IMG/VR virus record: IMGVR_UViG_2529292998_000004 | Location: 1-50,094 of that record | Reading direction: 5' to 3' (one strand) | Length of the DNA stretch: 50,094 bases | DNA from: a virus | Taxonomy: Duplodnaviria; Heunggongvirae; Uroviricota; Caudoviricetes | Shown here: positions 5,626 to 15,993 of the stretch, one piece after another | Layout: the number at the start of each line of letters is the position of its first letter | Numbering within the stretch: position 1 is the first letter of the stretch | The notes under the pieces: generated by a model | What the model was told of the DNA's origin: nothing | The model's input: the letters and a program-made list of their open reading frames with translations, nothing else | The model's database searches: none | Made by a program: the position numbers and the translations under genes

Positions 5626-8600
5626 TCAGCTAATCGTGATGCCTGCAGTGGCTTTCTTCATCACCACAACCAGCAAATCGCTGATACTTGCTGTGGGATA
5701 CCAGTTATTTACCAGCCATGCTGACACCGAAAACTCCAGTGTCATGTGACCGTGACCGGCAGGCATATCAATAACACCACTGTAAATCAGCGTATTATCC
5801 AGCGCGGTACGGTTATAAATTTCAGCACCGTTTTTCCGCACTATCAGACGGCATGAGGAGTAAATATCAGTATGCTCTTTCTCATGTTTAGCGCCGCTGA
5901 ATGCCACCGCCGGAATAACAATCTGCCGGTCAAACGGCTGATCGTCATAAACCCTGACGGTAATGGTTCCTGATGGCCACCGCTCCGGTGCACGGGAGTC
6001 CCGGGGGAAAGCTTTGCCCACTGTTTTAACGAGATCGCCTTCAATCTGGTTCGCGGACAATTTTCCCAGAACCCGACAGTTCTCGTTAATCGTGACGTTG
6101 TTGAGCGTCCCGGAGTTCGCATTCACGTTACCGCTGATATCGGCATTTTTCGCCGTCAGCCGCCCGTCCGGTGTCAGGGAAAATGCCGGAGGATTACCGC
6201 CGCTGGTAATGGTGGGAGCCGTCAGATATTTCAGGAACACTTCATTCATAAATATCTGATCGCCCTGACCAACAAACATCGGCTTTGTGTTGCCATTCGC
6301 AGGATTAATCATCGCAATCCTGTCTGCCGCCAGCAGCACCTGACTCTGCATTCCTGCTGGCGTATTCTCAATACCGGCACCGATACCCGCAATATAAAGG
6401 CGTCCGTCCTGCATCTGCTGCAGTTTCACGGCCCACATGCTGTTCAGGTTATTATTTGTATCAACCTGAACCTTCTGTATCTGCTGGATTGCCGCACTCT
6501 GGTCTTTCAGTTTCTTATTGACAGTCTGCGTGATTTCATTGCTGACATCCGTAATGGACGTCCTGATTTCAGCCAGGTCAGGCGCAAGCTGACCGTTATC
6601 AATCTGCGTCCACAGCTCCTGAGCCAGATGGGTTTTCCCTATCTCGCCTTTGAAAAAATCCAGATAACCGGATGCATCATCACTCGGCTGACCAACAGCC
6701 TCCACGAATGCCGATTTGCCAACGGTGTTCACACTGCGAACGTAAAAATAATAATCATGGCCCGGTTTGATATTGATACTGGCGGCTATCCAGTACAGCC
6801 CCGTGCCAAGATAGCGCGCTGTGGTTTCAACCTTCCTGATATCGGTAATCCGCTTTTCCGAAAACCAGAACTCAAACTGTACCGTCGGGTCATAAACGGC
6901 AAGATGCGGCGTGGCGGTTATCTGAAAATAGCCCGGCGTCAGCTCAATCCGCGACGGCGCTGCCGGTGCGGCAATCCGGAACGATACCGACGCCGGATCG
7001 CCCTGCTGTCCCCACGCATTTACCGCCCGGACCGTCAACATGTAACGCCCCAGCGCCAGCTGCCTGAAGCGGTATGTGGTTTCCGTCGTCCGGGCCGTGC
7101 TGACCAGCCGCTCACTGCCATCGTCCGCTGTCACGGTCAGGCGAAGCAGGAAGCTCACGCCCTTCACCACCTTCGGCGTGTCCCATTTCGCCTGCGCCAG
7201 ATACTGGCCGTCAGCTGCGCTCACCTCCACCGTCAGGTGCTGCACTGCCGGTGGGATGACGCTGTTCAGGGAACCTGACTGCGGCTCAAAGCGGGCACCG
7301 TTATCCACGATGGCTTCTTTTTCCGGTACGTGCTGCACCGCCGTGATGGCAAAGGTGCCGTCCGTGTTTTCCCGGACGGAGACACAGCGGAACAGGCGAC
7401 GGCGCAGTGACGGCAGGGAGAGTCCCCACACCCCGTATGTCTCCACACCATCAGGCAGGGTACTGACCTGTATCCGGTCCGGCGCGGGGTGTTCGGTGAT
7501 GTCCACACTCACTGGCTTACCGCTGCCGTTAATCAGGTTCACCGTGGCGGCACCGGTCTCCGGAAGTGTCACTTCACGGTCCAGCGTCAGGGTGCGGGTG
7601 GCAGCATCAATGGACAGGACACGTCCGCCGGTCAGGGTCCCGGCATAGTCGTTATCACAGATTTCAATGATGTCACCGGGTGTGTGCCGCAGCCCCTGAG
7701 ACCCGAGCGTGAAATCCACCGTCTGCGTTTCCAGCAGTTCGGTCTTTATCACCCACAGTCCGGCACGGTGGGCCTGACCGCGGCTGGTACAGCCGAACGC
7801 GTCCATCTTCAGCAGGTTGCGTCCGTAGCGCAGTATGGCTTCCGGGTCTTCCACCAGTTCCGTGGAGGTCTGCCAGCCGTTCTGCGGGTCGGTGTAATTC
7901 ACCTCCACCGCCGTGTGCCGGTCCTTCAGGGCACTGAAGCTGTAGCGGAATCCCACGCCGTTATCATCCACCACCACATCGCTGTTGGTGTACGGCCACA
8001 CCACATCCGACGGGCGGTCCTGAACGAACGTCAGCGTCTGACCGTTCCATACCGGCATACAGCGCATCGCAGAGCAGAAATCACTGAGAACGTCCCACGC
8101 CTTACGCTGTTGTGCCAGGTACGCATTAAAGGTCATCCGCGGCTCGGTCCCCCCGAAACCATCCGGGACCGTCTGATCGCAGTACTGCCCGATGGCATAC
8201 AGCGCCCACTTGTCCACATCCGCCGCCCCCAGACGTTTTCCCATGCCGTAGCGCGGGTGAGTCAGCATGTCCCACAGGCACCAGGCCGGGTTGTTGCTGT
8301 ATGCCGGTTTCAGACTGCCGTCCCAGATACCACTGTACGTGCGTTTTTCCGGGTCATAGTTTGACGGCACCTGGATGATACGACCGCGGATATGGTAGTT
8401 CACCGTCATCTGCTGGCCGCCGAACTGCTCCGCATCCACCTGCAGCCCCACAATGGCCGTGTTCGGGTAGCACTGTTTCACATCGATGATTTCGGTGTAT
8501 GACGACCACAGCGTCTTATTCTGCAGCTGGTCCGTGGTGCTGTCCGCCGTCTCCCTGACCATCCGGATGTTAAAGGGCCGGGGAGGCAGATTATCCAGAA

Positions 8601-9102
8601 TCACCGAGGCCAGGAACTGTGAGGTGGTCTTGCCGTTAATGGTGACGTCCTTTTCTGTCACCCAGTTACCGTTACGCTGTAACTGAATCAGCAGGCGGAC
8701 GGTTGCCGGGTTACGGTCACCCTTTGAGGTGGTCTCCACCAGTGACTGCACCCCGAAGGTAACCCGCAGGCGGTCAATGTTCGCGGACGTAATGGTGCGC
8801 GTCACCGGTTTTGCCTTCGTCACTTCCACGCCCAGTCCGGTTTCAGCTCCGGAGGACTCAAAGCCTTCCGGTGGTGTCTGCTCCTGCTCCCCGGCACGCC
8901 AGACCGCGGTCACACCGTGTATCACGGGATTACCGTCCGTGTCCGTCAGCGGGGTTTTGTTCACCAGAATACTCTGCAGTCCCTTCACCGGACCTTCTAT
9001 CGGTCCCTCACCAATCGCATCAATCACACTCATCATCTGCGTGGATTTGAGATTATCCTTCGCCTCACGAGGCGTGTGTGCCTTACCGCCACCTTTTCCC
9101 AT
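5626..9102 (-). CDS. J: Tail tip host specificity protein J
   Basis: 1158 aa; N-terminus [22 protein letters not shown]... and overall length as lambda J. Confidence 0.95.
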
Positions 9103-9307
9103 ACAGCCTTCCCCTGAATAAATTAACCGCCACTTGCCATTCCGTACAGAAGTCGGATATCCTTCGCCCGAAAAGCATGAAACACATTTCTGCCATGCTA
9201 AAGAGAAACCCCGGTATCAGCAGATACCGGGGTTTTCTTTCATGCCCACCGATAATCCTGTTGGTTAAAACCGGTAATGGCATAAAAATTCTGAATATCT
9301 TCACATT

Positions 9308-9335
9308 TTCACACACTGACTGTGGCGCGTATAAT
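9308..9335 (+). promoter_or_regulatory. Putative sigma70 promoter (TTCACA-16 nt-TATAAT) inside the I-J intergenic insert
   Basis: Hexamers read directly from the sequence; no experimental support. Confidence 0.3.
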
Positions 9336-9400
9336 TTCTCTGCGTTAATTTTTTTGTCGTGATATAAGAATAATTCCTTACACTTAATCTTCGTAACTCT

Positions 9401-9438
9401 CCCGCAGTTCCTGTCCGCGATCACTGCGGGATTTTTTT
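9401..9438 (+). terminator. Rho-independent terminator on the plus strand (CCCGCAGT..ACTGCGGG + T7)
   Basis: 8 bp GC stem followed by TTTTTTT on the plus strand; not a terminator in the minus (late transcript) direction. Confidence 0.45.
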
Positions 9439-9445
9439 ATTCTTT

Positions 9446-10126
9446 TTACCCCTGCCGCCCGATAACCACGACCTTTCCGCCCCCGCCTTCATCACGGGTG
9501 CTGATGTCCTGGGATATACGGCGGGAGCCAACCAGCATTTCCCCGTAAGGCACCGGCATCGGGTTCCCCTGGGCAATCATGTTATCCAGCGAGGAAAAGT
9601 ACGTGTTCTGTCTGCCGTTATCCGTTGCGCGGTAATCCGGTGTTTTTGCCTTCGGGGCCAGCATCTGGGCCACTCCGCCCAGTATCATGCTGGCACCCAG
9701 TGAAAACAGCATCGTGGTGGCAGAAAAACCACCGGCACTCAGGGCTGTACCCCATAACGCCATCGAGCCTCCGGCCGTGAAGAAAGAGCCCACGATGGCT
9801 GCCGCCCCCAGCACAATCTGCAGTCCACCCTTTCCGGCCCCGGCCAGTCGCGGCACAATGTGGATGACCGTTCCCTCACCCAGCTGTTCGTGAAGGCGGG
9901 CGTACACCACCTCCGGTGCCGTGTCTTCACCGGCAATACGTATCTGGTACCAGCCTTCGTTCATCTGACGGCGAAAGCCCGGCATCTGCATCGACAGGGC
10001 GCGAATGGCTTCCGCTGCCGTGTTCACATACAGGCTGAGGCGGCGGCCAAATCGTTGTAAATCCCCGTGAAGGCAGATGTGTGCCAGTGGCGGTGACGCC
10101 AGACAGAATGCGTTCGTCGTTGCCAT
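9446..10126 (-). CDS. I: Tail assembly protein I
   Basis: 226 aa; lambda I-like (..ARICLHGDLQRFGRR.., C-terminal glycine-rich hydrophobic region). Confidence 0.9.
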   Translation of the reverse strand: MATTNAFCLASPPLAHICLHGDLQRFGRRLSLYVNTAAEAIRALSMQMPGFRRQMNEGWYQIRIAGEDTAPEVVYARLHEQLGEGTVIHIVPRLAGAGKGGLQIVLGAAAIVGSFFTAGGSMALWGTALSAGGFSATTMLFSLGASMILGGVAQMLAPKAKTPDYRATDNGRQNTYFSSLDNMIAQGNPMPVPYGEMLVGSRRISQDISTRDEGGGGKVVVIGRQG

Positions 10127-15240: not shown

Positions 15241-15993
15241 TTACCCTGCAGCGCCCGCTTCAGTAACGGTGACTTCAGCCACTGCGGCGAACTGACCATT
15301 TCCGCTCACCACAGGGATCTGCACCTTACCTGTCGCCACGCCGTTTACCGTAATTGTCATATCTTTCACACTAATGGTGGCTTTCGACGGATCGGCGGAA
15401 ACCGCTCTGAACGTCTTGTCGGTTGCACTTTCCGGCTCAAAAGAAACCGTCAGGGTGGTTGTTTTCCCTTTTGCCACCGTACCGGATGTCGGCGTCACCT
15501 TAATCGCACTGACCGGCGTAATTTTGCTGCGTTCTTCCGCTACAGAAGGTTTACCCACGTTAGTGACTTTCACCGTGCGGGTGATCACTTCTTTCGCCGT
15601 CACGGCCTTACCGATACTGCTGACCCAGCCACGAAACACATCCACCGTGCCATTCGGAAAACGGATTTTATAGGCCCGGACATCGCCGCTTTCAAACCAG
15701 CCTATAAGCCCTTTCTGGCCTTCCTCTCCCGGTTTCCAGGCCAGCGTAAAACTGGTATCACCTGCAGATTTCTGCCCCTGCCCGGTCGCGGTCCAGTCCG
15801 CGTCTTCATCATCCAGGTAGTTATCATCGTAGGATTCTGCCGTCATCTCGCCCGGCGTCAGATCCTTCACCTTAGCCAGTCGCTGCCAGTCATCGTCTGA
15901 CAACGGGTTTGCATAAGCATCACCCTTGCCGTTGTAAACCCACAGAGTGGTGCCGGCACCTTTTACCGGCTCAAGGGGATTTGGTGTTGCCAT
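15241..15993 (-). CDS. V: Major tail protein V (with C-terminal Ig-like domain)
   Basis: 250 aa, lambda V-like N-terminus; C-terminal Thr/Val-rich Ig-like segment. Confidence 0.9.

Follow-up and report, generated by a model that had tools for sequence, protein, structure and literature searches.

PasB (pathogenicity-associated sRNA B) is encoded by prophage PP6 of EPEC E2348/69 and is one of five prophage small RNAs (sRNAs) found in this strain by RIL-seq; it was confirmed by Northern blot and RNA-seq, and its stability depends on Hfq (Pearl Mizrahi et al. 2021, PMC8550237). By its count of RIL-seq interactions it ranks 15th; in uninduced cells its partners include core-genome and virulence mRNAs. 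It is annotated as an 83-nt RNA on the minus strand (NC_011601.1, 1466343..1466261; probe AATCCCGCAGTGATCGCGGAGCT). The distribution of PasB was recently surveyed by Zhu, Shabalina and Storz (2026, bioRxiv 10.64898/2026.05.13.724894), who used the 83-nt PasB as BLAST query, reported it in about 1,100 chromosomes with variants showing "a few nucleotide differences", and proposed a seed just upstream of the terminator. A second group, EcOnc22, EcOnc23 and EcOnc24, was detected as Hfq-CRAC peaks in prophages Sp15, Sp14 and Sp11, respectively, of O157:H7 Sakai (Tree et al. 2014, PMC4104026, Table S2). These RNAs, of about 85 nt on a Northern blot (EcOnc22), lose stability in a delta-hfq background (PMC4104026 supplement), and the probe for EcOnc22-24 was GGGAGAGAACGATGAAGATTAACTGATGAGTTA (PMC4104026). 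No link between PasB and EcOnc22-24 is drawn in either of the PasB sources: the PasB table row (PMC8550237) names no EHEC homologue, and the 2026 survey never mentions EcOnc.

Here we describe a relative of these RNAs in the gap between tail genes I and J of a lambdoid prophage (Caudoviricetes; IMG/VR virus record IMGVR_UViG_2529292998_000004). The window, as we call the whole stretch of DNA that was analyzed, comprises positions 1 to 50,094 of that record. The I-J element is of an already known, experimentally detected kind of sRNA, and the copy in the window is a distinct, unnamed allele that is common and unannotated. With a probability of roughly 0.8, we regard positions 9281-9445 on the plus strand as a self-contained sRNA gene, a divergent allele of the PasB/EcOnc22-24 family, whose product is most likely trans-acting and Hfq-bound. 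Anti-sRNAs of the AgvB/AsxR type (EcOnc01-03) resemble it in being prophage-encoded, short and Hfq-dependent (the last a prediction for the window gene), and in combining a conserved 3' part and a variable 5' part with a conserved position in lambdoid prophages. Their locus, however, is downstream of PR' at the moron site, whereas the window gene lies in the I-J gap.

Architecture of the I-J gap

The late operon of the window runs on the minus strand. The following features were located in the gap and its flanks:

5626..9102, minus strand: tail tip / host specificity gene J (six GpJ/phage-tail Pfam families above curated cut-offs)
9103..9445: I-J intergenic region, 343 bp, AT-rich
9103..9280: left module of type 1, separate from the sRNA gene, with the J ribosome-binding region at its left end
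9134..9163, plus strand: weak resemblance to a promoter (TTGCCA-18-TATCCT, 9/12) ahead of the left hairpin
9206..9235: very stable hairpin; stem of 10 G/C-rich pairs extended by AAA/UUU, AGCA loop, flanks U-rich on either strand
9281..9307, plus strand: conserved upstream block ATAAAAATTCTGAATATCTTCACATTT, holding the imperfect palindrome TCTGA-N6-TCACA (9290-9305)
9308..9335, plus strand: sigma-70-like promoter (i), TTCACA (9308-9313)-16-TATAAT (9330-9335), 11/12 match, predicted start about 9342
9342..9438, plus strand: sRNA gene at its maximal extent of 97 nt, the only match in the window to family covariance model R1
9346..9351, plus strand: alternative -10-like hexamer (ii), TAATTT, predicted start about 9356-9358, aligned with the annotated PasB 5' end
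9366..9374, plus strand: candidate Hfq distal-face site AAGAAUAAU, three A-R-N triplets
9374..9392, plus strand: unpaired conserved core and candidate seed, CU-rich UUCCUUA (9374-9380) plus UUAAUCUUC (9384-9392)
9400..9438, plus strand: Rho-independent terminator, 9-bp stem (9400-9408/9423-9431), 14-nt loop, U7 (9432-9438)
9446..10126, minus strand: tail assembly gene I (Pfam PF06805, Lambda_tail_I)

In lambda (NC_001416), only 60 bp (15445-15504) separate the end of I (15444) from the start of J (15505), against the 343 bp measured here. GC content is 0.38-0.45 inside the gap and 0.55-0.63 in the flanks. Both the size of the gap relative to lambda and its AT-richness had been pointed out in an earlier reading of the sequence (hereafter the original prediction), and these observations stand; the promoter, the terminator and a second hairpin that it described were likewise re-found in the sequence, all of them at the correct coordinates. 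The original prediction had further assumed an insertion of about 280 bp. The extra DNA is real, but it is not a single insertion: the gap is made of two independently assorting modules, a left one (9103-9280) and the sRNA gene (9281-9445).

Many E. coli chromosomes contain the exact 343-bp sequence without annotating it, and Stx phages share its right half. The left module is 178 bp long and occurs with both PasB-type and window-type bodies; of the 1451 records that match it (in 1446 genomes), 1443 show at least 99% identity. An alternative left module, type 2, pairs with PasB-type, window-type and further bodies; this is the module carried by the E2348/69 gap, whereas the window carries type 1. 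A sensitive BLAST search on the origin of the left module matched this locus alone, where the sequence is near-invariant and holds no informative variation.

The right module would have all that an sRNA gene needs: a control block ahead of a promoter, and a body of about 83-97 nt with a Rho-independent terminator, read in the direction opposite to the late operon. The last nucleotide of the gene precedes the I stop codon (9446-9448) by 8 nt. Its terminator, a hairpin plus T7 in the original prediction (9401-9438), is confirmed with the stem and T run listed above, and the terminator tail has a folding energy of -15.7 kcal/mol. The fold of the whole RNA is modestly better than that of shuffled sequences (z = -2.2).

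Kinship with PasB and EcOnc22-24 and spread of the family

The right-hand ~165 bp of the gap (9281-9445) is homologous to the PasB and EcOnc22/23/24 genes. In E2348/69 (NC_011601.1), I ends at 1466255 and J starts at 1466496, which places PasB on the I side of the gap, in antisense orientation to the late genes. PasB and the window gene thus occupy the same slot, in the I-J gap beside the I stop codon, and in the same orientation. Their upstream/promoter blocks are near-identical, the 3' terminator arm and the U7 tail are identical, and both RNAs have a GCGUUA...U-run leader, an A-R-N stretch, and UCCUU and UU(A/G)AUCUUC motifs. In contrast, the transcribed bodies are only about 60% identical, and the terminator loop of the window gene is 5 nt longer than that of PasB. 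The reverse complement of the PasB probe matches window positions 9413-9433 except for its first bases. The same pattern was observed with Sakai Sp12, where a PasB-type allele adjoins the same left module as in the window: the left modules agree at 99.4%, the promoter blocks at 96.7%, the leaders at 85.7%, the bodies at 59.6% and the terminator regions, which differ in the loop, at 76.9%. Since the upstream modules are 96.7-99.4% identical in this comparison and the body only 59.6%, the divergence is limited to what is transcribed.

One and the same allele (C) occupies the I-J gap of Sakai prophages Sp15, Sp14 and Sp11, running opposite to the late genes. When the EcOnc22-24 probe is reverse-complemented, its final 23 nt, GTTAATCTTCATCGTTCTCTCCC, match this Sakai allele exactly, which settles the mapping of EcOnc22 to the I-J allele. 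Placement of EcOnc22 by coordinates alone was rejected, as the NC_002695.1 positions land in the left part of the gap in NC_002695.2; with AgvB as an anchor, Sakai coordinates shift by about +137 to +146 between the two versions. EcOnc22-24 share with the window gene the slot, the orientation, the TCTGA-N6-TCACA block, the core motifs and the terminator stem. They nevertheless represent a third allele: the body differs from that of the window, and the promoter region has AATAAT instead of TATAAT and no TTCACA -35. Comparison with the I-J junctions of related prophages, which the original prediction had proposed as a check, therefore reveals homologous sRNA loci in the same gap of E2348/69 and of Sakai Sp15, Sp14 and Sp11. 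The allele-A copy in Sakai Sp12 is missing from the EcOnc list (PMC4104026), so not every copy of the family is abundantly Hfq-bound under every condition.

An Rfam search, also proposed originally, recovered no family in the gap. Nothing was found there at the gathering threshold in a search of the whole window, and a permissive search of 8900-9700 (Rfam 15, E up to 1) gave no match at the gathering score, the best hits reaching 15-19 bits against gathering scores of 40-315. PasB itself is without an Rfam family. As a control, AgvB was recovered in the Sakai control loci at 96.5 bits. Identity of the window gene with AgvB/AsxR (RF02702/RF02703) was considered and is ruled out by the different locus and the lack of a sequence match or of an Rfam match, even at E up to 1.

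Family covariance model R1, built from an alignment that includes the window copy, gave a single match in the window (9342-9438, plus strand, 91.4 bits, E = 1.4e-16). Scanned with the conserved upstream block, viral contigs gave more than 120 loci; the same scan of bacterial references, with one genome per species, returned only E. albertii and three tiny contigs resembling contamination. The TCTGA-N6-TCACA palindrome lies upstream of every copy of the family, including 8 found by the covariance model alone and thus independently of the search pattern. Overall, we found 44-45 distinct RNA variants. The terminator hairpin with a U run is present in 45/45, at least 6 terminal U in 39/44 and at least three consecutive A-R-N triplets in 40/44. 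UCC[UAC]U is kept in 35/44 variants, and UU[AG]AUCUU[CU] in 39/44, just upstream of the terminator, where Zhu et al. place the PasB seed. The terminator loop varies between 4 and 14 nt across variants, while the stem CCCGCAG/CUGCGGG is almost invariant. Because this stem barely covaries, with a single compensatory change (G-C to A-U) in the 8 bp of the model-based alignment, the structural evidence is one of conservation, with minimal covariation. RNAalifold on a MAFFT alignment of 25 variants returned no consensus structure, the divergent terminators being misaligned.

Two, three or four tandem copies per I-J gap were found in six of the loci examined, using the covariance model and a motif scan. 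As upstream block, -10 region, body and terminator recur with every tandem copy, the unit is a gene cassette. At some loci (L012 and L062), the copy is split by an insertion sequence directly downstream of the upstream block. Among 5426 complete E. coli genomes, window-type bodies (allele B) are found in 800, of which 613 at no less than 99% identity, and PasB-type bodies (allele A) in 956. The latter number is close to the approximately 1,100 chromosomes of the published survey, and the variants reported there differ by few nucleotides; in our reading, this suggests that the survey covers allele A only and that its BLAST query probably missed the window allele. A full-text search with strings of the window allele and their reverse complement matched no paper.

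Promoter, 5' end and upstream palindrome

The -35/-10 pair of the original prediction (TTCACA and TATAAT, plus strand) is present and, at 11/12, is the sole sigma-70 match of at least 11/12 on both strands of the 50-kb window; first-order Markov simulations gave an average expectation of 0.2 such matches per window. According to the original prediction, degenerate promoter hexamers in relatives would have spoken for a non-functional remnant. Instead, the upstream block and the -10 elements are conserved in all alleles and tandem copies. A second -10-like hexamer, TAATTT (ii), lies further downstream: its pattern TAnnnT (T1, A2, T6) is invariant across all alleles and paralogues, and a conserved TnGC is found 17 nt upstream of it. 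A start at about 9342 would give a 97-nt RNA and one at about 9356-9358 an RNA of about 82 nt. As both -10-like hexamers are conserved, the predicted 5' end is ambiguous between these two positions. By homology with the annotated 83-nt PasB, the mature RNA would span about 9356-9438. The TTCACA/TATAAT pair is not proven to be the promoter in use, since a start from hexamer (ii) would match the annotated PasB length. In the experimentally verified Sakai allele, where TTCACA has no counterpart and AATAAT replaces TATAAT, a promoter scan found none.

The original prediction of a plus-strand RNA of about 100 nt, antisense to the late operon, stands as to kind and position, as the PasB and EcOnc loci make such an RNA; its 5' end may lie about 15 nt further downstream than assumed. 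The term antisense would here describe position and not necessarily function, because the relatives behave as trans-acting Hfq sRNAs.

The palindrome in the upstream block, TCTGA-N6-TCACA, presumably resembles a CRP site. The CRP consensus is approximately TGTGA-N6-TCACA within a 22-bp site such as AAATGTGATCTAGATCACATTT, and activating sites are centred near -41.5 or -61.5. Set beside this consensus, TCTGA-N6-TCACATTT (9290-9308) has a perfect right half-site and 4/5 matches in the left one. The centre of the palindrome falls at about -44.5 for a start at 9342 and at about -60 for a start at about 9358. PasB levels are higher in LB than in DMEM (PMC8550237), which would be compatible with control by CRP; the putative CRP site is a lead and not a finding.

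Function of the RNA and alternative readings

Homology, position, orientation and the conservation of signals place the window gene in a family of which two other alleles have been detected and depend on Hfq. From these we infer that the window allele is expressed as well, most likely in the lysogen. Hfq would probably bind and stabilise the RNA via the U7 tail and the A-R-N stretch AAGAAUAAU, and the core UUCCUUA ... UUAAUCUUC (9374-9392) would probably pair in trans with host and prophage mRNAs. UCCUUA is complementary to the Shine-Dalgarno-like UAAGGA and as such would fit repression at ribosome-binding sites. Among the 230 translation-initiation regions of the window, the best duplex with the RNA reached -21.8 kcal/mol, a value also reached by 96 of 100 shuffled RNAs.

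The alternative that survives best, although we consider it unlikely, is that the RNA acts mainly in cis, as an antisense partner of the late mRNA, to whose I-J part it is fully complementary. It could direct RNase III cleavage between I and J or interfere through convergent transcription, and the late transcript could in turn titrate the sRNA after induction. Such a role would account for the constant position and antisense orientation of all alleles and tandem copies in spite of their diverging bodies, and for a gene end only 8 nt from the I stop codon; moreover, no trans target is established for any allele, RIL-seq partners being available for PasB only. Yet PasB is 15th by RIL-seq interactions and pairs with core-genome and virulence mRNAs without induction (PMC8550237), the RNA overlaps neither the I coding sequence nor the J ribosome-binding site (about 250 nt away), and trans-acting RNAs typically have A-R-N and U-tail Hfq modules. 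Cis and trans roles are not mutually exclusive and may coexist.

The second hairpin with U-rich flanks (9207-9234), which the original prediction had grouped with these signals, is indeed present but belongs to the other module and is not part of the sRNA. Its arms, CCCCGGTATC (9209-9218) and GATACCGGGG (9223-9232), are extended by AAA/TTT, and it folds at -28 to -32 kcal/mol (z = -5.7 to -6.7). A further reading is that the left module encodes a second small RNA of about 70 nt on the plus strand (9134-9240), running from TTGCCA-18-TATCCT to the 9209-9232 hairpin with its U-rich tail. A promoter-like match is present, the very stable hairpin is followed by UUUUCUUUC, and the module is conserved as described above. 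However, 0.4 promoter matches as weak as this one (9/12) are expected per 200 bp, a simple terminator scan did not call the hairpin on either strand, no Rfam family matches (best E = 0.64), and the list of Hfq-CRAC peaks has none for Sakai Sp12, where the left module is present. In addition, the lambda and type 2 gaps have a hairpin at the equivalent position, just upstream of the J ribosome-binding site, without such a promoter. A second RNA is therefore distinctly improbable, and the shared position suggests that the left hairpin may serve the late transcript, for instance by terminating or insulating it or by stabilising mRNA 3' ends. The stem of the type 2 hairpin covaries (GGCAYC with GRUGCC) and is scored as a terminator on the late strand.

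We regard it as very improbable that the right module is an inert recombination remnant or moron debris in which promoter and terminator look-alikes go unused. The gap is mosaic, the insertion sequences in L012 and L062 indicate that loss is tolerated, and the direct data come from sister alleles. Against this, two sister alleles are expressed and Hfq-dependent, the signals are conserved over 44-45 variants as well as in tandem paralogues, the 11/12 promoter match is unique in 50 kb, and the allele itself is conserved at 99% or more in 613 genomes. Finally, a small protein encoded in the gap is so unlikely as to be nearly negligible: ORFs exist (113 aa, 9083..9424, minus strand; 94 aa, 9078..9362, plus strand; 44 aa, 9134..9268, plus strand) and phage record H32 annotates a hypothetical protein across the gap, but none of the three has a Pfam or PHROG match, they cross the hairpins, the promoter and the J start, and the alleles differ by T-run lengths and by indels of 1, 2 and 5 nt, which, not being multiples of three, would break any frame.

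Significance of the I-J locus

The sRNA gene, read as a divergent allele of PasB and EcOnc22-24, reveals no new kind of element. Tentatively, and at less than even odds, we propose that lambdoid phages may reserve the I-J gap for a single family of sRNA cassettes, with swapped bodies, arrays and a CRP-like activator site. Its chassis may consist of the TCTGA-N6-TCACA block, the GCGUUA/U-run leader, the A-R-N stretch, the core of UCCUU and UUAAUCUUC, and the CCCGCAG/CUGCGGG terminator. On this chassis, bodies may have been swapped or diversified into at least four alleles and stacked up to four per gap, and PasB and EcOnc22-24 may be alleles of the one family. If so, the targets of allele B, which about 15% of complete E. 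coli genomes carry, would differ at least in part from those of PasB, and the upstream palindrome would be the site of an activator, possibly CRP, tying expression of the RNA to host physiology.

In pathogenic E. coli, host regulation is rewired by sRNAs of prophage origin, among them PasB and the EcOnc RNAs. About 800 of 5426 complete genomes, many of them from human isolates, carry allele B, which neither annotation pipelines nor Rfam pick up and which BLAST-based surveys probably overlook as well. The family would consequently be larger than present counts of "PasB" indicate.

Upstream block, tandem arrays and interrupted copies

An imperfect palindrome, TCTGA-N6-TCACA (9290-9305 in the window), is invariant 5' of all copies of the PasB/EcOnc22-24 sRNA family. 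By its sequence it resembles a CRP site, and its centre would lie at about -44.5 or about -60, according to which start site is real. The same block recurs within arrays. The I-J gap of some phage contigs holds 2, 3 or 4 paralogous sRNA gene copies in tandem, and every one of them has a separate TCTGA-N6-TCACA block, a -10 region, a body and a terminator. In some first copies of these arrays the terminator stem is a different one, CUCCCGU paired with ACGGGAG.

Tandem sRNA gene copies in the I-J gap of compared contigs
L067:250-1260, (-) strand, tandem copies
L057:4330-5110, (-) strand, tandem copies
L017, L071, L091 and L032, further loci with tandem copies

In two loci, L012 (450-476, (-) strand) and L062, an insertion sequence splits the sRNA gene directly behind the upstream block. 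This element, whose first open reading frame starts MTKNTRFSPEVRQRAV, is presumably of the IS3 family and IS629-like. The locus was also found as E. coli phage sequence on three genome contigs of 460-3408 bp (L012, L013 and L015) assigned to assemblies of Asaia platycodi, Parendozoicomonas haliclonae and Streptomyces flavalbus, which most likely reflects contamination of these assemblies.

The hairpin upstream of J

Lambda, 'type 2' gaps (those with the alternative left module) and the window all have a stable hairpin a short distance upstream of the J ribosome-binding site.

Hairpin upstream of J
Window, 9206-9235
L006 (lambda), 946-1005
L007 (compared locus), 1242-1265

The 'type 2' stem presents a C-G to U-A covariation, and on the late strand this hairpin scores as a terminator. 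It therefore seems that the late operon conserves a hairpin between I and J irrespective of the sRNA gene.

Rfam matches elsewhere in the window

Three Rfam matches were noted in other parts of the window.

Rfam matches
1378-1576, (-) strand, IS009, 225.7 bits
43811-43898, (-) strand, C4 antisense RNA, 83.2 bits
43934-44008, (-) strand, isrK Hfq-binding RNA, 64.1 bits

The IS009 match and the sRNA gene are about 8 kb apart. IS009 is reported to be a typical neighbour of PasB (Zhu et al. 2026, bioRxiv 10.64898/2026.05.13.724894), and this is what first suggested the PasB identity. The side-by-side C4 and isrK matches suggest that this other part of the window holds a P1/Gifsy-type control region, of the antirepressor or anti-Q kind.

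A fourth Sakai copy and the EcOnc coordinates

In Sakai, a fourth sRNA gene of the I-J gap is present in Sp12 (L136, NC_002695.2 2217392-2217732). Its allele is PasB-type and its left module is the one seen in the window; it does not figure among the EcOnc RNAs listed by Tree et al. 2014 (PMC4104026). Near 1.94 Mb, the published EcOnc coordinates, which refer to NC_002695.1, are shifted by about +137 to +146 nt against the current RefSeq version, NC_002695.2. Read without this correction, they would put EcOnc22-24 in the incorrect half of the gap.
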